Below, in pieces: positions 2,537 to 38,832 of a stretch of 64,000 bases of DNA (position 1 is its first letter; the number at the start of each line of letters is the position of its first letter). The position numbers and the translations under genes were made by a program. Location: contig JANYGI010000026.1 in assembly GCA_025362495.1 (NCBI GenBank), forward strand, positions 66,118-130,117, written 5' to 3'. Source of the stretch: Byssovorax sp. GTDB lineage: Bacteria; Myxococcota_A; Polyangia; Polyangiales; Polyangiaceae. The notes under the pieces are model-generated. The model worked only from the letters and a program-made list of their open reading frames with translations, was not told the DNA's origin and searched no databases.

Positions 2537-3670
2537 CTATTCGGCGGCGTCGAAGGCTTCTTCGCGCGCGGCCTCGAAGCTGGCCATCTCGTAGAAGTCG
2601 TGGCCGGGCGAGCGCGCGATCATCGGCCGGGCCCACGATCGGCGCAGGTAACCGAAGCTGAAGACGCGCTCCTGGTACATCTCGGGGCGCTCTTTCTTGA
2701 TCGCCTCGGCGGCCTTGCGCAGGTTGTACCAGGGGATCTTCGGGGCGAGGTGATGGGGGAGGTGAATGTTGATGTCGAACCACATCGCCTCGATCCAGCG
2801 GGGGAATCGCACGTTGAACGTGGAGATCACCTGGCCGCGGAGAGGGGTCCAGTCCCTGGCGTCGAAGACGAGGGCGTCGGCGCTGGTGTGGTGGAGGTAC
2901 GTGAGCAGCGCGCCGTGGGTCGCCGCGATGAACGTGGGCACGAGGTAGTACTTGGCGGCCATCCACGCGCCGCCGAAGTGCACCAGCAGCGCGATGATCG
3001 AGCCGCTGACGGTGAGCATGAAGATCGACGAAAATAGCAGCTGACGCGGCGCCTCGCGGGTGATCGGGATCTGCGGCGCGAGCTGCTTCATGAAGGTGCG
3101 GCGGAACATGCCGACCCAGAAGCCCACCAGCATGCCGAGCGGCGTCCCGAAGCCGAGGCGCACATGGGCCTTGTCGCCGAGAGGAGCGTGATCGTACTCG
3201 TCGCGGGTGAGCATCCGCTCCGGCCAGTCGGGATCCTGGCCGCGGAGCTGCGTCTTGCCGTGATGGTGGTTGTGCCAGATCCGCCAGTTGTGAAAGGCCG
3301 TGTAGCCGACGGCGAGGCAGACGTGGCCGACGGCCTCGTTCACCCAGCGTCGCTTCGAGAAGGCCATGTGCGCGCAGTCGTGGCCGATGACGAAGATGCC
3401 AGTGAAGCACCAGCCCGAGAAGAGCCAGGCCGCCAGCAGCGCGGGGATCTGCCAGGCGAGGCCGGGGCCCCACACCGGCCTTATCTGCGTGAGGATCGCC
3501 GTGGCGAAGGCCAGGCGCGCAAACGCCATGAAGACGCCGCGCCACGAGCGGGCCTCGTCGATCTCGAAGCACTCCTTCGGGATGAGGGTGCGGATCGTCG
3601 CGATCGTGGTGCCGTCTTTGCGGGCCCGTCCGTCGATCACGCTCGGCGGCGCGGTTTCTGCTGAAATCAC
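2537..3670 (-). CDS. Membrane fatty-acid desaturase (histidine-box family)
   Basis: Three His boxes HDCAH, HNHHH and HLPHH separated by hydrophobic segments. Confidence 0.8.
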   Translation of the reverse strand: MISAETAPPSVIDGRARKDGTTIATIRTLIPKECFEIDEARSWRGVFMAFARLAFATAILTQIRPVWGPGLAWQIPALLAAWLFSGWCFTGIFVIGHDCAHMAFSKRRWVNEAVGHVCLAVGYTAFHNWRIWHNHHHGKTQLRGQDPDWPERMLTRDEYDHAPLGDKAHVRLGFGTPLGMLVGFWVGMFRRTFMKQLAPQIPITREAPRQLLFSSIFMLTVSGSIIALLVHFGGAWMAAKYYLVPTFIAATHGALLTYLHHTSADALVFDARDWTPLRGQVISTFNVRFPRWIEAMWFDINIHLPHHLAPKIPWYNLRKAAEAIKKERPEMYQERVFSFGYLRRSWARPMIARSPGHDFYEMASFEAAREEAFDAAE

Positions 3671-3739
3671 CGGCCGAGCGTAGCGTTTGTCGCGGCCGCG
3701 CGCTTCAGCTTTGCGTCACGATCCGCCGCGAAATCGCGT

Positions 3740-4438
3740 TCACATCCCGGGGAAAATCAGCTGCGTCGCGGTGACGGCGAGGGCCGTGGTCAGCGGGATC
3801 GTGAAGTTGTCGTCGAGGCGCGTGGAGACGAGCTCGGCGATCGCGCCGGCGACTGCGCCCGCGATCGCCAGGATGATCCGCGACGACCACGGCATGGCGT
3901 AGAACACCGCGAGCGAGGCCAGGGCGCCGACGGTGCCGGCGACGACGAAGGTGAGCGTGCCCTCGAGCGAGCGCCCGGTGCGAAGGCGCGTACGCCCGAA
4001 GCGACGGCCGATGAAGCCCGCGGCGGGATCGGCCAGGCCGAGGACGACGACGCCGATCTCGGCGGCGCGGAGCGGAAAGAAGAGCGTGAGGATCAGCAGC
4101 GCCGTGCAGTACCAGGTCGACGAGTTGACGTGGTAGCGCTCGCGCGGGTGGGCGATCGGCCTCAGGATCTTCATCAGCAGATCGTTCGCCGCGGGGCTCT
4201 GGCGGCGGATCGCCTCCAGCGTCCACGCGACGACGACGAACGTCGCGGCGATGGCGATCAGCGATCCACGTCCCGGCATCAGCCGCAGCAGCGCGAGCGA
4301 CAGGCCGCCCGACGCGACATGGAAAATGCTGCGGGTGTAATTCGCAGGGCGGGCAACCTGGGCAGGGGCGGGGACGGGCGCCTCGAAGGCGATGTCGCCG
4401 ATCTCCACTGCCGGGGCGTCGTAGGCAGGCTTGGACAA
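3740..4438 (-). CDS. CTP-dependent polyprenol kinase / phosphatidate cytidylyltransferase family membrane protein
   Basis: Multi-TM protein. Motif GRRFGRTRLRTGRSLEGTLTF resembles the Sec59/VTE5/CdsA family signature. The assignment is family-level only. Confidence 0.45.
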   Translation of the reverse strand: MSKPAYDAPAVEIGDIAFEAPVPAPAQVARPANYTRSIFHVASGGLSLALLRLMPGRGSLIAIAATFVVVAWTLEAIRRQSPAANDLLMKILRPIAHPRERYHVNSSTWYCTALLILTLFFPLRAAEIGVVVLGLADPAAGFIGRRFGRTRLRTGRSLEGTLTFVVAGTVGALASLAVFYAMPWSSRIILAIAGAVAGAIAELVSTRLDDNFTIPLTTALAVTATQLIFPGM

Positions 4439-4613
4439 GGTGCCCTCACAGTAACCTCGCGGGGGTGGGTGCGACCATCAGCGCTTCGTCACAAATCACG
4501 CCCCAGACCACGCCGCACCGCGTCGCGCGCGGGTCACGAAGGTTGAAGCGTGAGGCCTGGATCACGTACTTCTACGGGGAACCCCGCGCGACGCCGCGTG
4601 TCGGAGACGCCTC

Positions 4614-6422
4614 ATGCCCTCACCCCGCCTCGTGCCCACGATCCCGGACCTGCTCTCCGCCGATCCCGAGCTGCGCGTCGATCGAGCCGAGCTGAAGCAA
4701 ACCCTGATCTTCGCCTTCGCGGCCGGGAGCGCGGTCGACGCCTTCGACAGCGCCCTCGTCGGCGCGACGCTGCCGCGATCGCGCTGGGATCGCGGGCATT
4801 TCTCCAGGGATCTCTTCCTCGATCAGCTGATCGAGCGCTGCCTGCCGGTGCGGATCGGCGGGCGCGATCACGCGCCGTGCGCGGCGTACCTGCTCCGGGC
4901 GATCGCCGATCCTCCGCGCGACGCGGCGGTGACGGCGTTCCGTCGCGAGGTGCTGGAAGAGCTTGTTTCCTCGAAGGATCGTCGCGCCGAGCTCGAGCGC
5001 TGCTACCTGAAGATCGTCGAGCTGCGGACGCTGCTCTGCGCGGGGAGGCGCACCGGCGAGCGGCTGCGTCGCCTGGAAATTCTGCGCGCCGTTCACGACG
5101 TGATCGGCACCCTGGCGGGCTCGTTCGAGGGCGCGACCTCGGGGCTCGCGCGGGTCCGCGACTTCGGCGAGGCCGTGCGCGCGGGCGAGTCGTACCGTCG
5201 ACTCGACGCGCTGCTCGAGCACGAGCAGCACCTCGCGACGGTGGACCTGCGCGTGCGCATCGGCACCGACGGCGAGATCCGCGCCTTCCAGATCACGGCC
5301 GTCACCGAGAACCACGACAACCCGTTCCACGCCTCGGCCATCGGCCGATGGATCGCGAAGATACGCCTGTTTTTGCGGGGATATCGCGTCGACGGCGGCG
5401 AGGTCACCGAGCGGATCTTCGACGACGTGTTCACCGGCCTGGAAGAGAGCCTGGTGCTGATCTTCCAGCTCCTCGGCGACATGGAGTTCCACCTCGCGGC
5501 GCTCGGCTTCCGCGATCTCGCCGCGGCGAAGGGCCTCGCGGTCTGCTTCCCCGAGCTGGTCGTGGACGACGCGGAGGGCGCGCCCGGGATCAAGCTCGCG
5601 GGCCTCTTCAACCCGCTCTTGCTCGGCGAAAAGCGCGCTCCCGTGCCCTGCGACATCGACGTGGCGCGGGCCGGCTCGGTGGTGATCGTCACTGGCCCGA
5701 ACTCCGGCGGCAAGACGCGGCTGCTCCAGTCGGTGGCCTTCGCGCAGCTCCTCGGCGAAGCGGGGATGTTCGTGCCGGCGCGCGCGGCGCGGCTCCCGCG
5801 GGTGTCGGGGCTGTTCGTGTCGATCGTCGACGATTCGCGGGCCGATCAGCCCGAGGGGCAGCTCGGGATGGAGCTCTTGCGGATCCGGCGGATGTTCGAG
5901 GAGCTCGGCCCGGGCTCGCTGGTGCTGCTCGACGAGCTCTGCTCGGGGACGAACCCGTCGGAGGGCGAAGAGATCGCCCGCCTCGTGATCTCGCTCCTGC
6001 CCGAGCTCGGAGCGCAGGTGTTCGTGACGACGCATCTGCTGCATTTCGCGGCTCGCCTCGCCGAGGAGCCCTCGTTCTCGCGCACCGAGTTTCTCCAGGT
6101 CGAGCTCGACGAGCACGAGCGCGCGACGTACGGGTTCATCCCCGGCGTGGCCCGCACCTCGCTCGCGCACAAGACCGCCGCGCGCCTCGGTGTAACCCGC
6201 GACGAGCTGACCGCGTTGATCGCCGCGAAGAAGCGAGCCCCGCTGCTCGGGTCCAGCCCGCGCGCGAGTTCGCTGGCCACTCCCCCGGCCTCCGGCACTA
6301 CGATGCTCGCCGCCACCGCGGCGGCGATCGACGCTGCCGTGGGCCAGGCAGAACCCCACGAGGATCCCGATGCGCTCGTTCGCTCCGCTGCTCTCGCTCG
6401 CGTGCCTTCTCACGGCGTGTGA
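4614..6422 (+). CDS. MutS-family ATPase (domain V only, no Smr domain) with an unrecognised 350-aa N-terminal region
   Basis: Walker A VTGPNSGGKT and MutS signature LVLLDELCSGTNPSEGEEIA followed by VTTH. The 3' end overlaps the start of serpin 1 by 53 nt. Confidence 0.7.
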   Translation: MPSPRLVPTIPDLLSADPELRVDRAELKQTLIFAFAAGSAVDAFDSALVGATLPRSRWDRGHFSRDLFLDQLIERCLPVRIGGRDHAPCAAYLLRAIADPPRDAAVTAFRREVLEELVSSKDRRAELERCYLKIVELRTLLCAGRRTGERLRRLEILRAVHDVIGTLAGSFEGATSGLARVRDFGEAVRAGESYRRLDALLEHEQHLATVDLRVRIGTDGEIRAFQITAVTENHDNPFHASAIGRWIAKIRLFLRGYRVDGGEVTERIFDDVFTGLEESLVLIFQLLGDMEFHLAALGFRDLAAAKGLAVCFPELVVDDAEGAPGIKLAGLFNPLLLGEKRAPVPCDIDVARAGSVVIVTGPNSGGKTRLLQSVAFAQLLGEAGMFVPARAARLPRVSGLFVSIVDDSRADQPEGQLGMELLRIRRMFEELGPGSLVLLDELCSGTNPSEGEEIARLVISLLPELGAQVFVTTHLLHFAARLAEEPSFSRTEFLQVELDEHERATYGFIPGVARTSLAHKTAARLGVTRDELTALIAAKKRAPLLGSSPRASSLATPPASGTTMLAATAAAIDAAVGQAEPHEDPDALVRSAALARVPSHGV

Positions 6423-7716
6423 TCCCCCGACGCCGGCCGCCACGTCGTCGTCCGGCGGCGCGCCGATGCCGCCGCCCTCGGCCAGCCAGGTCGCTCCCGC
6501 GGAGTCGGCGACGCCCGCGCCCACCGCCTCGACGCCGCCCGTCGCTCCGCCCGCCGCCGGTGAGCTCGGCGCGCTCGCGAAGAGCAACAACGCTCTCGCG
6601 ATCGATCTCTACGGCAAGGCGCGCGCGCAGGCCGGCAACCTCGCGCTGTCGCCGATCAGCATCTCGACGGCGCTGACGATGACGTGGGGCGGCGCGAAGG
6701 GCGAGACCGCCGCGCAGATGAAGAAGGTGCTCCACGCCGAGGGCGAGCCGACCGCGGCGATGGACGTCTCGGGAAAGCTGCTCGCGAGCTTCGGCAACGA
6801 CGGCAACAAGGTCACCCTGCGCGTGGCCAACCGCCTCTTCGGCGAGAAGACGTACGCCTTCGAGCAGAGCTACCTCGATCGCACCAAGGCCGCGTTCGGC
6901 GCGCCGCTCGAAGCCCTCGATTTCAAGCACGCGGCCGATCCGTCGCGCGTCCACATCAACGAGTGGGTCGCGAAGCAGACCCAGGATCGGATCAAGGATC
7001 TCATCCCGAGCGGCGCCCTCACCATCGACACGCGGCTCGTGCTCACCAACGCCATCTACTTCCTCGGCGACTGGATGGAGCCGTTCGCGAAAGAGCAGAC
7101 GCGCCCCGCGGCGTTCCACGCGACCGCGAGCGCGACGAGCGACGTGCCGACGATGAACCAGGCGGCGCACTTCCGCTTCGCGGCGACCGATGGCGTGAAG
7201 GTCCTCGAGATGCCTTACCAGGGCGGCGAGGTGGCGATGGACTTCGTCCTGCCGGACGCGCCCGCGGGCCTCGACGCGGTGGAGAAGCGCCTCTCGACGG
7301 CGACCTTCGACGCGTGGATCGGCGCGATGAAGTTCGACCAGGTGAACGTCGCGCTGCCGAAGTTCGAGATCAACCCGGCGGCGTCGCTCTCGCTCGGCGA
7401 CACGCTGAAAGAGCTCGGGATGCCGCTCGCGTTCGACAAGGACAAGGCCGACTTCACCGGGATGGCCAACCCGCCGAGCCCGGCCGATCGGCTCTACATC
7501 AGCAAGGTCTTCCACAAGGCCTTCGTGAAGCTCGACGAGAAGGGGACCGAGGCCGCCGCGGCGACCGCCGTGGTGATGGCGCGCGCCGGCGCCGCCGCGC
7601 CGACTCAGCCGCCCTCGGTGTTCAAGGCCGACCACCCGTTCCTGTTCGTGCTCCGCCACGTGAAGTCGGGCGCGATCCTGTTCATGGGCCGCGTCAGCGA
7701 TCCCGCGGCGAAGTAG
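6370..7716 (+). CDS. Serpin (serine protease inhibitor) lipoprotein, paralogue 1
   Basis: Lipoprotein signal MRSFAPLLSLACLLTAC. Serpin core motifs NAIYFLGDW, hinge EKGTEAAAATAVV and C-terminal FKADHPFLFVLRH. About 45 kDa. Confidence 0.85.
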   Translation: MRSFAPLLSLACLLTACDPPTPAATSSSGGAPMPPPSASQVAPAESATPAPTASTPPVAPPAAGELGALAKSNNALAIDLYGKARAQAGNLALSPISISTALTMTWGGAKGETAAQMKKVLHAEGEPTAAMDVSGKLLASFGNDGNKVTLRVANRLFGEKTYAFEQSYLDRTKAAFGAPLEALDFKHAADPSRVHINEWVAKQTQDRIKDLIPSGALTIDTRLVLTNAIYFLGDWMEPFAKEQTRPAAFHATASATSDVPTMNQAAHFRFAATDGVKVLEMPYQGGEVAMDFVLPDAPAGLDAVEKRLSTATFDAWIGAMKFDQVNVALPKFEINPAASLSLGDTLKELGMPLAFDKDKADFTGMANPPSPADRLYISKVFHKAFVKLDEKGTEAAAATAVVMARAGAAAPTQPPSVFKADHPFLFVLRHVKSGAILFMGRVSDPAAK

Positions 7717-7819
7717 CCCCGCCGCGGCGATCGCGCCGATCGCGCCTCGCGGCGCCGAGATCGTCGCGGTCGCCGTGTCCCGTTCTCCCTCCCCAGCCAC
7801 CGACGAGAGACCCCTGCGC

Positions 7820-9169
7820 ATGCGCTTGCTCGCTTCGATTTTCCCTTTCGCGATCGTCGGCGCGGGGTGCAATCCGCCGCCGTCGACCGCGTCGACCGCG
7901 TCCGCCGAGGCGACGACGCCGTCCGCCGCGACGCGACCGCCGATCGTCTTCGCCACCACGCGCGCGCTCGCGCCGGTGAAGCCCGCACCGCGCGTCGATG
8001 CGCCCACGGACGCCGAGATCGCGGTGTTCGCGAAGAGCAACAACGCGTTCGGGCTCGATCTGTACGGGAAGGCGCGCGCGCAGGCCGGGAACGTGGCGAT
8101 CGCGCCGATCAGCGTCACGTCGGCGCTGACGATGACGTGGGGCGGGGCGCGCGGCGAGACCGCGGCGCAGATGAAGAAGGTGCTCCACGCCGAGGGCGAC
8201 GCGGGGCCCGCGATGGACGTCGCCGGGAAGCTTGTCGGGAGCTTCGGCAACGACGGCAACAAGGTGACGTTGCGCGTCGCCAACCGCCTCTTCGGCGAGA
8301 AGACGTACGCGTTCGATCCGGCCTACCTCGATCACACCAGGGCCGCGTTCGGGGCGCCGCTCGAAAGCCTCGACTTCAAGGGGGCGTTCGAGGCGAGCCG
8401 CGGGCACATCAACGACTGGGTCGCGGGGCAGACGCAGGATCGGATCAAGGAGCTGCTGCCCGCGGGCGCGCTCGACGCGGACACCAGCCTCGTGCTCACG
8501 AACGCCATCTATTTCCTCGGCGCGTGGGCCTCGCCGTTCGCGATCGCGGCGACGCGCCCGGCGCCGTTCCACGCGACCGCGAAGGCCGCGAGCGACGTGC
8601 CGACGATGAGCCAGACCGAGCAGTTTCGATTCGCGGCGACCGACGGCGTGCGGGTGCTCGAGATGCCGTACGCGGGCGGCGACGTGGCGATGACGTTCGT
8701 CTTGCCGGACGCGCCCGACGGGCTCGACGCCGTGGAGAAGCGGCTCTCGACGGCGACGATCGACGCGTGGACGAGCGCGCTGAAGCCCGATCGCGTGGCG
8801 GTCGCGCTACCGAAATTCGAGATCGCCCCGGCGGCGTCGCTCGCTCTCGGCGGCGCGCTGCAAGAGCTCGGCATGCCGATCGCGTTCGACAAGAGCAAGG
8901 CTGATTTCAGCGGCATGATCAACGCGAAGAGCCCCGCCGATCGGCTCTTCATCAGCAAGGTCTTCCACAAGGCCTTCGTGAAGCTCGACGAGAAGGGGAC
9001 CGAGGCCGCCGCGGCCAGCGCGGTGGTGATGAGCGGGCCCGGCGGGGTCGCGCCGAGCGCGCCGCCGTCGGCGTTCAAGGCCGATCACCCGTTCCTGTTC
9101 CTGCTTCGCCACGTGAAATCGGGCGCGGTGCTCTTCATGGGCCGCGTCTCCGACCCTTCGAAGAAGTGA
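7820..9169 (+). CDS. Serpin lipoprotein, paralogue 2
   Basis: Start taken at MRLLASIFPFAIVGAGC (lipobox); an in-frame ATG also exists at 7775. Same serpin motifs as paralogue 1 but a different reactive-centre loop, VVMSGPGGVAPSAPPSAF. Confidence 0.85.
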   Translation: MRLLASIFPFAIVGAGCNPPPSTASTASAEATTPSAATRPPIVFATTRALAPVKPAPRVDAPTDAEIAVFAKSNNAFGLDLYGKARAQAGNVAIAPISVTSALTMTWGGARGETAAQMKKVLHAEGDAGPAMDVAGKLVGSFGNDGNKVTLRVANRLFGEKTYAFDPAYLDHTRAAFGAPLESLDFKGAFEASRGHINDWVAGQTQDRIKELLPAGALDADTSLVLTNAIYFLGAWASPFAIAATRPAPFHATAKAASDVPTMSQTEQFRFAATDGVRVLEMPYAGGDVAMTFVLPDAPDGLDAVEKRLSTATIDAWTSALKPDRVAVALPKFEIAPAASLALGGALQELGMPIAFDKSKADFSGMINAKSPADRLFISKVFHKAFVKLDEKGTEAAAASAVVMSGPGGVAPSAPPSAFKADHPFLFLLRHVKSGAVLFMGRVSDPSKK

Positions 9170-9212
9170 CCGCGCGAGGACGAGCCTCGCGCGTGTCCCC
9201 CTGCATCCACGA

Positions 9213-10502
9213 ATGGAAGAGGCTGTCGTGCACCTGCGATTGATTGTTTCGACTTGCGCCTTCGCGCTCCTCGGCGCTGCTTGCAGCGGCTCCCCCATCA
9301 CCCCCGCGACGGGGGGCGACGACGCCCACCCGCCGCCACCCGGCGCGGCCGACGTCGGCAGCTTCGCGAAGAGCAGCAACGCGCTCGGGCTCGATCTGTA
9401 CGCCAGGGCGCGCGCGCGGCCGGGGAACCTGGCGCTCTCGCCGATCAGCGTCGCCGCGGCGCTGACGATGACGTGGGGCGGGGCGCGCGGCGAGACCGCG
9501 GCGCAGATGAAGAAGGTGCTCCACGCCGAGGGCGAGTCGGGTCCGGCGATGGACGTCGCGGGCCAGCTCCTCGCGAGCTTCGGCGGCGAGGGCAGCAAGG
9601 TCACGCTGCGCGTGGCCAACCGCCTCTTCGGCGAGAAGACCTATGCCTTCGAGCAGGCCTATCTGGATCACACCAAGGCGGCCTTCGGAGCGCCCCTGGA
9701 GGCCCTGGATTTCAAGGGCAACGTCGAGCCCAGCCGCGTGCACATCAACGCCTGGGTGGCCGGCCAGACGCAGGATCGGATCAAGGATCTCATCCCCGCA
9801 GGCGGGGTCAGCGGCGACACCCGCCTCGTGCTCACCAACGCCATCTATTTTCTGGGGAACTGGATGTCGCCGTTCACGAAGGAGGCCACGCGCCCCGCGG
9901 CCTTCCACGTGACGGCGAGCGCGTCGCGCGACGTGCCGACGATGAACCAGGACGCGCGCCTTCGCTTCGCGGCGACCGACGGCGTGAAGGTCCTGGAGAT
10001 GCCGTACGAGGGCGGCGAAGTGGCGATGGACTTCGTGCTACCCGACGCGGCCGACGGGCTCGACGCGGTGGAGAAGCGGCTCTCGACCGCGGCGATCGAC
10101 GCCTGGATCGGCGCGATGAAGTCGGAGCACGTGGACGTCGCGCTGCCGAAGTTCGAGATCAACCCGGCGGCGTCGATCTCGCTCGGCGACACGCTGAGAG
10201 AGCTCGGGATGCCGCTCGCTTTCACGGCGGGCAAGGCCGACTTCACCGGGATGGCCAACCCGCCGATCGCCGCGGATCGGCTCTACCTCGACAAGGTCTT
10301 TCACAAGGCCTTCGTGAAGCTCGACGAGAAGGGCACCGAGGCGGCCGCGGCGACCGCGGTGGTGATCAACGTCGAGACCGCGATGGTCCCGAGCCCGTCG
10401 GTGACCTTCAAGGCCGATCACCCGTTCCTGTTCGTGCTCCGCCACCTGAAGTCGGGGGCGATCCTGTTCATGGGCCGCGTCAGCGATCCCGCGGCGAAGT
10501 AG
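9213..10502 (+). CDS. Serpin lipoprotein, paralogue 3
   Basis: Signal/lipobox CAFALLGAAC; a GTG at 9228 may be the true start. Serpin motifs conserved. Reactive-centre loop VVINVETAMVPSPSVTF differs from paralogues 1 and 2. Confidence 0.85.
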   Translation: MEEAVVHLRLIVSTCAFALLGAACSGSPITPATGGDDAHPPPPGAADVGSFAKSSNALGLDLYARARARPGNLALSPISVAAALTMTWGGARGETAAQMKKVLHAEGESGPAMDVAGQLLASFGGEGSKVTLRVANRLFGEKTYAFEQAYLDHTKAAFGAPLEALDFKGNVEPSRVHINAWVAGQTQDRIKDLIPAGGVSGDTRLVLTNAIYFLGNWMSPFTKEATRPAAFHVTASASRDVPTMNQDARLRFAATDGVKVLEMPYEGGEVAMDFVLPDAADGLDAVEKRLSTAAIDAWIGAMKSEHVDVALPKFEINPAASISLGDTLRELGMPLAFTAGKADFTGMANPPIAADRLYLDKVFHKAFVKLDEKGTEAAAATAVVINVETAMVPSPSVTFKADHPFLFVLRHLKSGAILFMGRVSDPAAK

Positions 10503-12263
10503 TCACGCCGTGGCGAGCTGCCTCTCGACCAAGCGGCGATAGAGCCCCTCTTGCCCCATCAGGGCGCCGTGCGCGCCGCTCTGCACGATCTTTCCGCCGT
10601 CGATCACGCACACCCGATCCGCGCCCGCCACCGTCGAGAGGCGGTGGGCGATGATCAGCGTCGTGCGGCCCTTCATCAGGCGCTCCAGGGCCTCTTTCAC
10701 GAGGTGCTCGCTCTCGGCGTCGAGGGCGCTCGTGGCCTCGTCGAGCACGAGGATGCGCGGATCCTTGAGCACGGCGCGCGCGATGGCGACGCGCTGCTTC
10801 TGGCCGCCCGAGAGCTGCACGCCGCGCTCGCCCACCAGGGTCGCGTAGCCCTCGGGGAATTTCTCGATGAAGTCGTGCGCGTTGGCCGTGCGAGCGGCCG
10901 CGTAGATCTCGGCGTCGGTCGCGCCGAGGCGGCCGTAGCGGATGTTCTCGAGGATGCTGCACGAGAAGAGGATCGGCTCCTGCGCGACGACGCCGATCTT
11001 GCGGCGGAGGCCGTCGGGGGCGAGGTCGCGCAGATCGTGGCCGTCGATGCGGATGGCGCCGCCGTCGGGATCGTAGAGGCGCGTGAGGAGCCCGGCGATC
11101 GTCGATTTGCCGGCGCCTGAAGGCCCGACGAGCGCGACGACCTCGCCCGGCTTCACCGCGAGATTGATGCCGTTGAGCACGCGGGCGTCGGGGCGCGTCG
11201 GGTACGAGAACGTCACGTCGTCGAGCTCGACGCGGCCCTCGATCGACGCGAGCTCGAGGCCGCCGGTGGGCGCGATCGCCGGCGTGCGATCGAGCAGCTC
11301 GAAGATGCGCTCGGCCGCGCCGCTGGCCTTCATGAAGTCGGCCCAGAGATCGGTGAGGCCGCCGAGCGAGACGGCGACGAGCATCGTGTAGACGAGGAAC
11401 GACGTGAGGCCGCCCGCGCTGAGCGTGCCCGCGGCCACCAGGCGACCGCCGCGCCAGAGCACCGCCGCGATGGCCGCGTAGGCCGCGAACGAGGCGACGC
11501 CGATGAACGTGGAGGCCATCATCGCGCGCGTCCGGGCCAGATCGAACGAGCCGGTGACGGCCGCGGCGTAGCGCGCGACCTCGATCTGCTCGGCGGCGAA
11601 CGAGCGCACCGTGCGGATGCCCGAGAGCGTCTCCTCGGCGACCTCGCTGCTCTTGGCGAGCTTGTCCTGTACGTCGCGGGAAAGCTTGCGGACGCGGCGC
11701 CCGTAGGCGACGGCGCCGAGCGCGACCGGCGGCACGACCGCGAGCATCACCAGCGTCAGCTCGCCCGAGGTGTAGAACAGGCAGCCGATCCCGCCGAGGA
11801 TCGTGGCCATGAAGCGCAGCCCCATCGAGATGTTCACGCTCACCGTGCTCTGCAGCACGGTGGTGTCGGCCGCGAGGCGGTTGGTCAGCTCACCCGTCTT
11901 GCGCGCGTCGAAGAAGGCGATCTCCTGATCCATCAGCCGCGCGAAGAGATCCGATCGCAGCCGCGCCACGACGCGCTCGCCGGCGATGGTGAAGAGGGCC
12001 GATCGGGCCGCCACCGCGACGGCCTGGACGACGGCGATCCCCAGCAGCGCGAGGGCGGCGTGATCGAGCGCGGCGACGCTCTTTCCCGGGCCCGCGGCGC
12101 TGTCGACGATGTTGCCGATCGCCTTCGGAAGCACCAGGCCCGCGACGCTGCCGATCGCCAGGAACAACGTGCCGAGCACCAGGCTGCGGCCCTCCGGGCG
12201 CGCTAGCCGCAGCACTCGTCGGAAGGAGTCGGGGCGAAACATCGGCTTCGGATCGGCTGCCAT
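10503..12263 (-). CDS. ABC exporter, fused permease plus ATPase (MsbA-like)
   Basis: Six-TM N-terminal domain, Walker [13 protein letters not shown] signature LSGGQKQR and Walker [13 protein letters not shown]. Start verified at MAADPKPMF (12263). The upstream 313 codons of the track ORF are Arg-rich read-through. Confidence 0.85.
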
Positions 12264-12385: not shown

Positions 12386-13531
12386 TCAGTCTCCGCCGAG
12401 CCTGATCCGCGCGCGGAGCATGAGCGCGCCGATCAGGTCCTCGTCGGCGTCGCTGCGCTGCGACCACCCGAGGGCCAGGTAACAGAGCAGCTCGCCGAGG
12501 GTGGTGCCGCTCGGCGTGACACGGCCGGGGCGCACGATCGCCAGCTGCTCGCCGTCCGCTGCGAGGCCCACGATCGCCTGCGTCGAGGACGCGCCCAGCG
12601 CCGAGCCCAGGATCCTCGCCACCGGGTAGAGGCCGGCGGCGGCGCCGCGCTCCCACGCGTCGTCGCTCTCGAGGGCCCGGAGCTCGGCCTCGCGGAGAAA
12701 CTGGAGCGTGCCTTCGATCGCGCCGATCGAGAGCTCGCGATAGCGGTCCGTCGGATCGCCGGGATCGACCCAGTCGTAGACGCTGACGAAGGCTGCGTGG
12801 CCTGCGGGCTGCGCGACGCCGCGGAGTGCTGGTGGCGCGGTGAATGCGCCACGGCCCGGGGTGCGGCGAAGCGCGCGCACGAGCCGGCGCGCCTCGTCGG
12901 CGATGGCCTCTGGCCCCGGCGCGATCAGCCGCACGTCGACGCGCCGCTCGGTGTCGAACAGCGCGCCCATCAGCGCCGGGAGCGCGGGCGCGCGGAGCTC
13001 GCTCGAGAGGAACGTCGAGCCGCGGTGCGGCCGGATCGCGGTGGCCTCGGCGGCGCGCTCCTCGGCGTCGGTCGCGTCGTCGTCGATCGCGATCGCGATC
13101 TCGTGCACCTCGCTGGCCTCGGCGCTCTCGACGCCGGCCTCGATCCCTTCCTCGCTCTCGCGCACGAAATGCCGCTGAAACGTGCCAGAAGCGAAGCTCC
13201 ACCCGTCGTCGTGGATCACGTCCTCCGCGAAGATCGCGCAGAGCACGCGCGCGTCGGGCGCGCCGAGCTCGGCGGCCGCGTCGATCACCCCGACCGCGGG
13301 CGAGACCTCGGCCTCGAAGAGCTCGACCAGGTGCTCGAGGTCCTCGCCGTCACGGCCGAGGCCGCTCGCGTAGAACGCGACCGAGTACCCGGGGACGCCG
13401 CGCAGCTCGGCGATCATCAGGTGCGGCGCGGGCACGTCGAAGCCGGCGAGCGCCACCGCGAAGCCCCGCGAGAGGGCTCGATCCGTGACCTCGGCGGGGC
13501 GAAACAGGAGCGCGGCGAAGGGAGAGGTCAT
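12386..13531 (-). CDS. Hypothetical protein
   Basis: Balanced amino-acid composition with high GC3. Start taken at MTSPFAALLF (cat at 13529-13531); the track ORF extends further upstream. No recognisable domain. Confidence 0.4.
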   Translation of the reverse strand: MTSPFAALLFRPAEVTDRALSRGFAVALAGFDVPAPHLMIAELRGVPGYSVAFYASGLGRDGEDLEHLVELFEAEVSPAVGVIDAAAELGAPDARVLCAIFAEDVIHDDGWSFASGTFQRHFVRESEEGIEAGVESAEASEVHEIAIAIDDDATDAEERAAEATAIRPHRGSTFLSSELRAPALPALMGALFDTERRVDVRLIAPGPEAIADEARRLVRALRRTPGRGAFTAPPALRGVAQPAGHAAFVSVYDWVDPGDPTDRYRELSIGAIEGTLQFLREAELRALESDDAWERGAAAGLYPVARILGSALGASSTQAIVGLAADGEQLAIVRPGRVTPSGTTLGELLCYLALGWSQRSDADEDLIGALMLRARIRLGGD

Positions 13532-13814
13532 CGCGGCAGAGGGTACGGCGAAGCCGTGGGCCGGTGTCAACAGCGAGGGGCCGACGCGCGAGGCCCGAGC
13601 CCGGTACGAAAGCATGAACGCAGCGCGCCGGCTGTGCATCCGATCGATCGACGAAGCGGTCGACGAGCGCTGGACGCGACACCGCCCGCGCCGAGGCACC
13701 ACGCGCGCGCCCACGCGGCCGAGGTCGCTCGATTTCGTCACTACGCCAGCACTGGCCTCGCCGCTCCGGCGGGGCTTCACCGGCGCGCGTCCGCGCACGC
13801 CAGGGAACCGATTC

Positions 13815-14723
13815 ATGAGCCATGTGTCCTCGAAGGGTCCGCCTCGCTGTTCGCCTCGCCGTCGCGCCTGGAGAGCGACATCGGCCTTCTCCGTGATCGC
13901 CGCGCTGGCGACGATCTTCGCGGCCTCCACCGCCGCCGCCGAGCCGCCGCCGTTGATGGGGTACGCGTCCGGATCCTGGCCGCCACCCACGCGTTTCGAC
14001 GGCTCGATCGAGGTGCAGATCGAGGCACCGACGCGGCCGCCCCCGGACGCGGTGACGCCGGCCCCGAAGGACGCGAGCTCGCCGAGCTTCGACCTCGGCT
14101 GCGCGACCGAGGTCCCCTTGATGGTCGGGGGCCAGCTGACGCTGGAGCTGCCGTATCGGATCTTGCTGCAGGGCGAGGTCGGCGTGCTCCCAGCGGCCTA
14201 TGTCAACGGGATCGACAGCGTGCTCGTCGGCAGCGGCGCCTATGACGCGACGACGTCGTCGCTGGTCCGCAGCACGCTGCAGAGCTCGCTCGTCGTCCGC
14301 GCCTCGGCGGGGTTTCGCCCCTTCACCGATCACGGCCTCGAGATCATGGGCGGCTACACGCTGACCTCGCTCGGCGGCGGCGTGAGCGCGCGCTCCGCCG
14401 TCGAGGCCGCCGCCGGCCTGACGATCCCCGCCGAGATCCCCGACGCGCAGATCCAGCTCAAGACCACCATCCACAGCGTCCACGCGTCGGTCGGGTGGCG
14501 CTGGATCGTGGGCGATCACTTCGTGGTGCGCGCGTCGCTCGCGTACCTCCAGGCCGTGGGATCGTCGTCGAGCCTCGCCGTGCCCGCGTCGATCTCGGCG
14601 GTCCCGGGCGCGGCCGCGCGTGTCGCGCAGGTGAGCCAGGCCATCGACTCGACGCTGAACACCAGCTTCACGAGGTACGCCAAGATGCCGGTGATGGGCC
14701 TCTCGCTGGGGTATCGCTTCTAG
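13815..14723 (+). CDS. Secreted hypothetical protein, possibly an outer-membrane beta-barrel
   Basis: Signal peptide RRRAWRATSAFSVIAALATIFAASTAAAEP. Alternating Ser/Gly/Val-rich strands and a terminal GYRF aromatic residue as in OM beta-barrels. Confidence 0.45.
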   Translation: MSHVSSKGPPRCSPRRRAWRATSAFSVIAALATIFAASTAAAEPPPLMGYASGSWPPPTRFDGSIEVQIEAPTRPPPDAVTPAPKDASSPSFDLGCATEVPLMVGGQLTLELPYRILLQGEVGVLPAAYVNGIDSVLVGSGAYDATTSSLVRSTLQSSLVVRASAGFRPFTDHGLEIMGGYTLTSLGGGVSARSAVEAAAGLTIPAEIPDAQIQLKTTIHSVHASVGWRWIVGDHFVVRASLAYLQAVGSSSSLAVPASISAVPGAAARVAQVSQAIDSTLNTSFTRYAKMPVMGLSLGYRF

Positions 14724-36444: not shown

Positions 36445-38157
<1,713 letters not shown>

Positions 38158-38211: not shown

Positions 38212-38517
38212 TCAGGAGGCGGCGGCCTCGGAGCGCGTGACGGCGAGGATGTCGTCCTCGCGGATCAGCATGTGCTCCTCGCCATCGAGCTTGACCTCGG
38301 TGCCGCTGTACTTGCCGAAGAGGACGACGTCGCCGACCTTGACGTCGACGGGGCGAACCTTGCCGTCCTTCAGCACCTTGCCGTTGCCCACGGCGACGAC
38401 GCGACCCTCGATCGGCTTCTCCTTCGCCGAGTCGGGGATGATGATCCCTCCCTTGGTCACGCTCTCGCCCTCGAGGCGCTTGATCACGATGCGGTCCTGC
38501 AGCGGCCTGATCTTCAT
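38212..38517 (-). CDS. groES: Co-chaperonin GroES (Cpn10)
   Basis: [35 protein letters not shown]...[17 protein letters not shown]. Start verified at 38517 with SD AAGGAAGAG upstream. Confidence 0.95.
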
Positions 38518-38640
38518 GGTGCTCTTCCTTTTCCGTGTGGCTGTTGCATCGATCCGGCCGCGGGGGAGGCCCCCCTCGCGCTCCTCGCCGCCACCGCCTT
38601 GGCTCGCCCCGGCCCGCGAACGGACCGAGCAGACAGGCGG

Positions 38641-38667
38641 CTGGCACTCGACCGGCTCGATGGCTAA
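38641..38667 (-). promoter_or_regulatory. CIRCE-like inverted repeat (putative HrcA operator) upstream of groES
   Basis: On the minus strand TTAGCCATC-N9-GAGTGCCAG matches the consensus TTAGCACTC-N9-GAGTGCTAA at 14 of 18 positions. It lies about 125 nt upstream of the groES ATG. Confidence 0.45.
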
Positions 38668-38832
38668 AACCGGGCGCAAAGTAAATCACAGGGGGAACGC
38701 GTCAAGGGCGCTGAAGGAATCGCGGATTCATTTCGAGTACGCTGGCGTTCGGCCGTCCGAGGTGCTACAAGGGGTCCCGTTCAGAGCGGCCGAGTACATT
38801 CCCGCAGCGTCGGCGGTCCCGTAAAAAAGAAG

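Follow-up and report, generated by a model that had tools for sequence, protein, structure and literature searches.

Organization of the Serpin Array

We analyzed a window of 64 kb (64,000 nucleotides) from Byssovorax sp. (Polyangiaceae; GenBank assembly GCA_025362495.1, contig JANYGI010000026.1, positions 66,118 to 130,117 of the forward strand), in which three genes for putative lipid-anchored serpins, here termed S1, S2 and S3, lie head to tail on the plus strand. The initial annotation of the window had described three such open reading frames (ORFs), and we recovered them at 6370-7716, 7775-9169 and 9213-10502. All three match the Pfam serpin family PF00079 at 373, 355 and 358 bits (S1, S2 and S3; cutoff 27), over profile positions 2-370 of 370. 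They also display the codon-position GC signature of real genes, with a third-position GC content (GC3) of 0.91-0.93 in DNA of 70% GC. None of the NCBIfam models matches S1-S3. With the start codons adopted here, the genes are as follows:

6370..7716, plus strand: S1 serpin, 448 amino acids (Pfam PF00079, E 1.9e-111)
7820..9169, plus strand: S2 serpin, 449 amino acids from ATG 7820 (Pfam E 6.8e-106)
9213..10502, plus strand: S3 serpin, 429 amino acids from ATG 9213 (Pfam E 7.2e-107)

The ATG of S1 at 6370 lies 5 nucleotides behind a GAGGA Shine-Dalgarno motif, and the protein is identical to entry P0001 of the homology database. For S2, the likely start is ATG 7820 rather than the GTG at 7775 of the listed ORF, since the resulting 449 residues equal the length of database entry P0030. 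For S3, GTG 9228 is a possible alternative start, with GGAAGAGG in front of it. The spacers measure 103 nucleotides between S1 and S2 and 43 between S2 and S3, all on one strand, and the three-serpin array is probably co-transcribed. The shared motifs and the three loop sequences quoted in the initial annotation are exact, except that S1 carries Lys instead of Arg in LTMTWGGA(K/R)GETAAQMKKVLHAEG.

Serpin Fold and Inhibitory Hallmarks

Searches against known structures point uniformly at the serpin fold. S1 matches 208 distinct serpin sequences in the PDB, the best being chloropin (8GXV) with an E value of 2.5e-83. For S2, an AlphaFold2 model built from 45 homologs reaches a mean predicted local distance difference test (pLDDT) score of 82, with values above 90 in the core. 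The score drops below 50 solely at residues 1-52 (signal peptide and linker) and at residues 395-412, which form the reactive-centre loop. Foldseek comparison of this model with the PDB returns serpins only, at a probability of 1.00 and target-normalised template modelling (TM) scores of 0.81-0.92, among them native MENT, antithrombin and chloropin. Pfam, PDB, AlphaFold2 and Foldseek thus all give a serpin, and the S2 loop is predicted to be flexible and exposed rather than buried. S1 and S3 share 70-77% of their amino acids with S2 and can be expected to adopt the same fold.

The inhibitory hinge consensus E-K-G-T-E-A-A-A-A-[T/S]-A is present in all three proteins, with Glu at P17, Gly at P15, Thr at P14 and small residues at P12-P9. 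We further compared the copies with alpha1-antitrypsin at about 51 conserved serpin positions, a list reportedly compiled by Irving et al. in 2000, from which one mismatching position was dropped. The alpha1-antitrypsin sequence used was verified for M358 and E342. S1, S2 and S3 each agree at 47 of the 51 positions checked (chloropin at 45), and the residues kept include S56, N186, W194, K290, H334 and E342. These hallmarks indicate that S1-S3 are probably inhibitory serpins.

Reactive-Centre Loops

The P1 register (P17 Glu plus 16 residues) was anchored on P1 Arg383 of chloropin, which has been mapped by mass spectrometry (PMC10090351). The loops, with the putative canonical P1-P1' bond marked by a slash, are:

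7537..7620, plus strand: S1 loop, from P17 to the residue before strand s1C, EKGTEAAAATAVVMARA/GAAAPTQPPSV; P4-P4' MARA/GAAA, Arg at P2, canonical P1 Ala406 (codon 7585-7587)
8990..9073, plus strand: S2 loop, EKGTEAAAASAVVMSGP/GGVAPSAPPSA, Gly/Pro/Ala-rich and unusual; P4-P4' MSGP/GGVA, canonical P1 Pro407 (codon 9038-9040)
10326..10406, plus strand: S3 loop, EKGTEAAAATAVVINVE/TAMVPSPSVT, prime side one residue shorter; P4-P4' INVE/TAMV, canonical P1 Glu388 (codon 10374-10376)

Divergence among the paralogs is concentrated in this region. Of the 18 loop columns from P7 to P11', only 5 are invariant, whereas the remaining core keeps 256 of 363 (Fisher p=3e-4). No other 18-column window of the core is as poorly conserved as the loop, and all 12 windows of lowest invariance overlap it. 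Between copies, the proportion of nonsynonymous differences (pN) reaches 0.27-0.51 for loop codons, compared with 0.10-0.14 for those of the core. The pairwise ratio of nonsynonymous to synonymous rates (dN/dS) is likewise higher in the loop, at about 0.63-1.66 from 18 codons, against 0.36-0.50 in the core.

Origin of the Array

The array is flanked as the initial annotation had stated, with a MutS-domain-V (MutS_V) ATPase gene upstream and a convergent ABC exporter gene downstream, both identified with Pfam:

4614..6422, plus strand: MutS_V ATPase, 602 amino acids (PF00488, 75.7 bits), a conserved syntenic flank
10503..12263, minus strand: ABC exporter, 586 amino acids (PF00664 and PF00005, ABC_membrane and ABC_tran), a fused transmembrane and ATPase protein of the MsbA/ABCB type

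Against NCBIfam, the MutS_V ATPase yields MutS2 and KamC matches far under their cutoffs. The MutS_V flank is syntenic with the serpin in loci L001, L046, L049 and L052, and the exporter flank in L003, L046, L049 and L052. We claim no functional tie of the serpins to either neighbour, as this synteny is confined to close relatives.

The nearest database relatives of S1-S3 are serpins of Byssovorax and other Polyangiaceae metagenome-assembled genomes (MAGs). In three Joint Genome Institute (JGI) samples (L046-L048), the order of desaturase, 230-residue protein, MutS_V ATPase, three serpins and ABC exporter is the same as in the window. Between the window and this JGI relative, the flanking proteins are 95-97% identical, and the orthologs of S1, S2 and S3 are 91, 87 and 81% identical, respectively.

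Pairwise identities among S1-S3 amount to 70-77% at the amino acid level and 79-82% at the nucleotide level, which identifies the copies as true paralogs. Collapse or duplication of a single gene during assembly, a general risk in metagenome-derived sequences and the sole reason to suspect it here, would hardly yield copies this divergent and with linkers of different length. Orthologs of each copy recur in the same order in contigs of the three independent samples, and we regard an assembly artefact as practically negligible.

Syntenic loci, ordered by the identity of their flanks to those of the window, differ in serpin copy number:

L046: MutS_V 95%, ABC 96%; 3 serpin copies
L049: MutS_V 91%, ABC 86%; 2 serpin copies
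L052: MutS_V 89%, ABC 87%; 1 serpin copy
L001: MutS_V 85%, no ABC match; 1 serpin copy

In GTDB representative genomes, most loci show no second serpin in the 10 kb to either side. In a neighbour-joining tree of the serpin core, calculated after removal of loop and linker, S2 and S3 are sisters (bootstrap 99) and the S1 orthologs group together (bootstrap 98). Both the S1 and the S2/S3 groups nest in a clade in which the S1-type (MARA/G) loop prevails, with deeper nodes unsupported. The simplest reading of these relations is that a single ancestral S1-type gene was duplicated in situ within a shallow Byssovorax-like lineage.

Selection and Gene Conversion

Comparison with the JGI orthologs allows the constraint on each copy to be judged. 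Synonymous divergence (dS) is 0.10-0.17 for the flanks and 0.15, 0.23 and 0.40 for S1, S2 and S3. Nonsynonymous divergence (dN) is 0.050-0.107 for the serpins versus 0.013-0.026 for the flanks (2537-6422 and 10503-12263), so that the serpins change their amino acids 2-5 times faster. The resulting dN/dS of 0.26-0.34 (S2 0.28), compared with 0.10-0.24 for the flanks, indicates purifying selection on all three copies. Ortholog dN/dS for the loops alone is 0.37-0.50, a constraint of the same kind as in the core. In the relative, the loop cores persist as MARA/G, MNGP/G and ISVE/S, and the S2 loop differs from its L046 ortholog at 2 of 18 positions. Since loop types are kept between orthologs, the loops appear to have diverged after duplication and to have been maintained from then on. 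The initial annotation had read the locus as duplication followed by diversification of protease specificity. Loop divergence between the copies and loop conservation between orthologs bear out duplication with subsequent diversification of the loops, and a change of protease specificity is suggested by the residues of the loops.

In at least one related lineage, the scaffolds of the copies have not evolved independently. A sliding-window comparison shows 97-98% nucleotide identity between S2 and S3 of the JGI relative at alignment columns of about 106-195, where S2 and S3 of the 64-kb window reach 81-96%. A Sawyer-type permutation test on 378 polymorphic sites detects a run of 32 concordant polymorphic sites (114 nucleotides) between S2 and S3 of the relative (p=0.0002). 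Scaffold gene conversion thus occurs in this array family, and scaffold trees deserve limited trust for the history of the loops. The high dS of S3 is at least partly inflated by the S2/S3 conversion tract in the relative.

Loops and Arrays Across the Family

We surveyed the loops of the best 120 database matches, 107 of which could be parsed. The canonical P1 is Ala in 62 loops, Glu in 12, Arg in 11, Lys in 5, and Pro and Gly in 4 each; the canonical P2 is Arg in 52 and Lys in 7. The common form is that of S1, VVM-A-R-A-G-x-A-A-P-S-K-P-P, with a conserved basic residue at canonical P2. This basic residue, found in 59 of the 107 relatives, makes the scissile bond of S1 ambiguous. Glu-type loops appear in several sub-clades (MSKE/S, MTKE/S, MGIE/S and VSRE/S), and the GPGG loop of S2 is found among the best 120 matches only in the window and its close relative. 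The premise of the initial annotation that bacterial serpins are uncommon is partly true and overstated, as this subfamily alone yields more than 7,000 database matches.

Other arrays in the survey combine differing loops as well:

L049, 986-3626: MARA/G, then MSKE/S
L050, 1-2735: MARA/G, MTKE/S and MAIP/T, the same three P1 classes as in the window in another order
L051: MARA/G, then MTPR/A, in a different genomic context
L036 (Victivallales MAG), 2943-5728: two adjacent serpins, MRRR/S and MFAL/C

The L036 pair indicates that tandem serpins with differentiated loops are not confined to Myxococcota. On the scaffold tree, the Glu-type copies of L049 and L050 do not group with S3, which may reflect either repeated origin of loop types or an orthology signal erased by gene conversion.

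Two side observations concern these relatives. A 607-residue AAA-ATPase_like/PDDEXK_9 gene lies downstream of the arrays in L049 (3849-5672) and L050 (5069-6892). In L049 it separates the array from the ABC exporter, L050 ends before any exporter, and the gene is absent from the window, L046 and L052. It appears that insertion and rearrangement occur at the junction between serpins and exporter. Serpins that are 53-59% identical to S1, and as close to it as many Myxococcota homologs, are present in MAGs labelled Thermoanaerobaculia, Acidobacteriota and Rhodocyclaceae (L008, L009, L011, L018 and L044); horizontal transfer and binning contamination are possible explanations.

The survey bears on how the differences between the loops of S1-S3 should be understood. 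They might represent neutral drift in redundant copies that were kept for dosage and share one target specificity. In any serpin, the loop is by nature the region under least constraint, its dN/dS over 18 codons is here compatible with neutrality, and a copy number of one to three among close relatives suggests that extra copies are dispensable. However, the residues from P4 to P1' determine serpin specificity, and exactly these differ in charge and class between the copies (Ala/Arg, Gly/Pro and Glu). Purifying selection on all three serpins and the conservation of each loop type between orthologs are also hard to reconcile with drift, and two- and three-copy arrays of other relatives again pair a MARA/G loop with a Glu-type loop. 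We therefore consider mere dosage duplicates very unlikely.

A reading at the opposite end would make this an arms-race locus in the animal style, in which surface-tethered serpins evolve fast, with birth and death and gene conversion among copies, while tracking the secreted proteases of competitors or prey, bait classes are assembled repeatedly, and S2 has acquired a new specificity. The window and L050 share their three P1 classes in different order, suggesting repeated assembly of Ala/Arg, Glu and Pro baits. If this reading were true, the S2 loop would embody an undescribed specificity, for example toward a Pro- or Gly-directed or a non-S1 protease. In its full extent, we hold such a scenario to be rather improbable.

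Lipoprotein Character and Location

Lipoboxes had been annotated in all three copies and are indeed present, as LTAC in S1, GAGC in S2 and GAAC in S3. Gly at position -3, as in S2 and S3, fits only the broad PROSITE-type lipobox pattern. The N-termini up to the lipobox Cys read MRSFAPLLSLACLLTA/C in S1, MRLLASIFPFAIVGAG/C in S2 and (M)HLRLIVSTCAFALLGAA/C in S3, with the Cys codons at:

6418-6420, plus strand: S1 lipobox Cys17, following a signal peptide of residues 1-16
7868-7870, plus strand: S2 lipobox Cys17, counted from ATG 7820
9282-9284, plus strand: S3 lipobox Cys

Beyond the Cys, linkers rich in Pro, Ala, Ser and Thr extend over 52 residues in S1 (18-69), 53 in S2 (18-70) and 27 in S3. 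The S1 serpin domain spans residues 72-445, and the S2 linker is unstructured in the AlphaFold2 model. The lipobox Cys is conserved in at least 90% of the 45 homologs, and a lipobox-like motif occurs in 108 of the best 120 matches. The rarity premise was overstated on this count too: lipoprotein serpins are the norm of this clade, and one from another bacterium, miropin, is already published.

Where the mature proteins reside can be approached through known sorting signals. In Myxococcus xanthus, Lys at +2 marks inner-membrane lipoproteins and Ala at +7 matrix lipoproteins (PMC3222651); in Escherichia coli, long disordered linkers typify outer-membrane lipoproteins and are required for their sorting (bioRxiv 10.1101/2021.01.05.425367). 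The +2 residues are Asp in S1, Asn in S2 and Ser in S3, so that Lys occurs in none, and S1 has Ala at +7. The lack of +2 Lys and the long disordered linkers favour an outer-membrane or surface location, which is the most probable assignment, even though the Myxococcus and E. coli sorting rules may not be those of Polyangia.

Alternatively, the serpins may face the periplasm, at the inner or the outer membrane, and hold in check, during export, serine proteases that the cell itself secretes or keeps in the periplasm. The majority of diderm lipoproteins are periplasm-facing, and the Asp at +2 of S1 acts as an inner-membrane retention signal in E. coli. Myxobacteria also secrete many proteases that pass through the periplasm. 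On the other hand, the inner-membrane signal of Myxococcus is found in no copy, linkers of this length go with outer-membrane and surface lipoproteins, and the +7 Ala of S1 is conserved in extracellular-matrix lipoproteins of Myxococcus. Miropin, moreover, is surface exposed. None of these contrary points is decisive for Polyangia, and we rate the periplasmic location as a serious but doubtful option.

Proposed Mechanism

Taken together, we consider it likely that S1-S3 are lipid-anchored inhibitory paralogs, which arose by in-situ duplication of a gene of the MARA/G type and now offer three specificities as a shield of the cell envelope. The ancestral gene would have been located between the MutS_V ATPase and ABC exporter genes of a Byssovorax-like member of the Polyangiaceae (Myxococcota), and after duplication the loops would have diverged and then been held constant. 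Each serpin would be exported by Sec, lipidated at the lipobox Cys by Lgt, LspA and Lnt, and transferred to the outer membrane in a Lol-dependent manner, possibly followed by surface exposure. A disordered tether of 27-53 residues, several nanometres long, would keep the serpin domain off the membrane. The exposed loop would then act as bait: a serine protease cleaves the P1-P1' bond and forms an acyl-enzyme, upon which the loop would insert into beta-sheet A and inactivate the protease irreversibly, as in the suicide-substrate mechanism.

The three loops would provide a specificity directed at small residues or Arg, one that is Gly/Pro-directed or unknown, and one directed at Glu. Jointly, they could protect the envelope against proteases secreted by the cell itself or by competitors. 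Judged by P1 chemistry, S1 might target alpha-lytic or elastase-like proteases (Ala at P1) or trypsin-like proteases (Arg at P2), and S3 glutamyl endopeptidases of the chymotrypsin fold. S2 might engage a protease that accepts Gly or Pro, be cleaved at another bond, or lack inhibitory activity. Both the target classes and the ecological role are predictions from sequence.

Several observations weigh against this proposal. A Pfam scan of 34 proteins, namely S1-S3 plus 31 further ORFs with GC3 support from across the window, detects no serine-protease gene, and no protease neighbour is found at any related serpin locus examined; gene context therefore lends no support to the proposed targets. 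Loop dN/dS between paralogs, estimated from 18 codons, is not significantly above 1. The S1-type bond may be Arg-Ala in a loop one residue shorter, instead of Ala-Gly; some serpins tolerate loops shortened in this way, as reported for CrmA and in the loop-length studies of Zhou et al. from 2001. The +2 Asp of S1 agrees with retention at the inner membrane by the E. coli rule. Within the window's own array, the best pair in the permutation test is S1/S3, with p=0.013 uncorrected for six tests, so that conversion inside this array is weakly supported.

The remaining points concern S2. We know of no precedent for a canonical P1 Pro, and S2 could be non-inhibitory or use another bond. Beside the Pro, it has Gly at both P2 and P1', and it alone carries Ala at shutter position 53, a conserved Ser. 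Together with the restricted occurrence of its loop type, these features hint at a division in which S1 and S3 are inhibitors and S2 is non-inhibitory or repurposed, its loop MSGP/GGVAPSAPPS being no productive bait. Yet the S2 hinge, GTEAAAASA, is fully of the inhibitory type, the conserved serpin residues are kept to the same extent as in S1 and S3, and purifying selection has left its loop nearly unchanged between orthologs. Serpins such as miropin can use non-canonical bonds, and proteases with a preference for small residues could conceivably cut the S2 loop at Gly or Ala. On balance, loss of inhibition in S2 seems unlikely to us, and we retain the reading of three inhibitory paralogs.

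Gene Context and the Wider Window

The junctions around the array show several features that may bear on its expression. The last 53 nucleotides of the MutS_V gene overlap the start of S1 (6370-6422), as they do in L046 (10001-10053), which suggests co-transcription. In the single-copy loci L001 and L052, the MutS_V and serpin genes are about 23-27 nucleotides apart. At the other end, the S3 stop (ending at 10502) directly abuts the exporter stop (10503, minus strand) with 0 nucleotides between them, and no terminator is predicted at this junction (10500-10505) for either gene. Two RNA hairpins are predicted within the array:

7723..7777, plus strand: GC-rich hairpin directly 3' of the S1 stop, no U tract; minimum free energy -45.9 kcal/mol over 7714-7822, z -1.9
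9168..9197, plus strand: GC-rich 12-bp hairpin directly 3' of the S2 stop, no U tract; z -3.4; 1 of 200 shuffled sequences folds equally well

Hairpins occur in equivalent places of L046 (about 11341-11370 and 12760-12788) despite sequence changes. They could serve as terminators without a U tract or as attenuators, or could stabilise 3' ends and so adjust how strongly the copies are expressed relative to one another. A scan for sigma-70 promoters and intrinsic terminators gave nothing meaningful, as expected for a myxobacterium with 70% GC.

Close to the ABC exporter, two long listed ORFs overlap on opposite strands, at 12386-13990 (minus) and 13485-14723 (plus), without a Pfam match. Their counterparts in L046 are called as genes of 417 (minus) and 302 (plus) amino acids and are 90-92% identical, and the shorter calls indicate that the real genes in the window are shorter than the listed ORFs. 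We regard them as conserved proteins of unknown function.

The remainder of the window encodes a broad set of cellular functions. Enzymes include a molybdopterin oxidoreductase, a fatty-acid desaturase, an MpaB/Lcp-type oxygenase, M24 aminopeptidase P, prephenate dehydratase, an aldehyde dehydrogenase and a transketolase. Transport is represented by the ABC exporter, MatE and MFS proteins, and signalling and regulation by a Ser/Thr kinase, a Crp-type regulator, an EAL protein and an adenylate cyclase. Chaperones are GroES/GroEL and an Hsp90-like ATPase, and further families are a DEAD-box helicase, the MutS_V ATPase, and SPFH/Band 7, TPR and FGE-sulfatase domain proteins. The Cpn10 (GroES) gene is listed as an ORF of 155 amino acids at 38212-38679 (minus), with the domain at residues 56-147, and translation probably begins at an internal codon; the GroEL gene comes next, at 36445-38142 (minus). 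Deriving serpin targets by guilt of association was rejected, as the sole candidate was the M24 aminopeptidase P, which is not a serpin target. A defence-system reading was rejected as well: PADLOC finds no more than a generic P-loop/ABC resemblance in the MutS_V ATPase and the exporter, and has no match for the serpin.

Comparison with Known Systems

Bacterial serpins have been known since 2002, and most prokaryotic members bear N-terminal targeting signals, some of them being membrane anchored (PMC8233489, PMC6718151). Our literature search, whose coverage was incomplete, returned no description of myxobacterial serpins or of tandem bacterial arrays with variable loops. The closest solved structure over the whole domain is chloropin of Chlorobium limicola (PDB 8GXV; PMC10090351), which shares with S1-S3 the hinge EKGTEAAAATAVVM, the FKADHPFLF s1C strand and the C-terminus ...LFMGR[VI]SDP. 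Chloropin is a canonical inhibitory serpin with Arg at P1 (VVMQLR/S), encoded by a single gene and modulated by DNA and heparin (PMC10090351). In contrast, S1-S3 carry lipoboxes and long tethers, have putative Ala, Pro and Glu at P1, and form a three-gene array.

For a tethered envelope shield, the best functional analogy is probably miropin of Tannerella forsythia. A preprint (bioRxiv 10.1101/2025.09.05.674453, citing Ksiazek 2015 and Goulas 2017) describes it as a surface-exposed lipoprotein serpin that traps both host proteases and those of other bacteria in covalent complexes. Miropin gains breadth from several bonds in the one loop of one gene, whereas the window would gain it from the loops of three genes. 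Miropin also belongs to another phylum (Bacteroidota) and another niche, and its surface exposure is known, while that of S1-S3 is a prediction.

Potempins of the same bacterium offer a second parallel. As described (PMC9890683), they are multiple paralogous outer-membrane lipoprotein inhibitors, each paired with its own secreted peptidase. They comprise 98-132 residues, are not serpins, and are encoded directly upstream of their cognate proteases. Unlike them, the serpin array has no linked protease gene within the 64-kb window.

If the array indeed provides three specificities, it would represent an envelope-protection layer in predatory or competitive soil myxobacteria, and its near-identical scaffolds with different baits would form a compact natural set for the study and engineering of specificity. 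The practical value is modest; S1-S3 belong to the ordinary serpins, miropin already documents a lipoprotein member, and there is no sign of a new mechanism. The locus is conceptually ordinary in that it combines known parts, namely bacterial serpins, lipoprotein serpins and tandem clusters with variable loops. The S2 and S3 loops, with putative Pro and Glu at P1, are unusual and constitute the chief point of interest.

The genomic arrangement itself most closely recalls serpin clusters of animals, such as bovine SERPINA3 (PMC4593666), woodrat SERPINA (PMC12646145) and those of Drosophila (PMC2770083). Common to these and to the window are head-to-tail paralogs with similar scaffolds, divergence focused on the loop, and copy numbers that follow birth and death. 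The animal clusters consist of eukaryotic secreted or intracellular serpins in immune, venom-resistance and developmental settings, whereas the window holds a small bacterial lipoprotein array. If its three specificities are real, bacteria would diversify their inhibitors in the same way as animals do, through tandem duplication, loop change and homogenisation of the scaffold.

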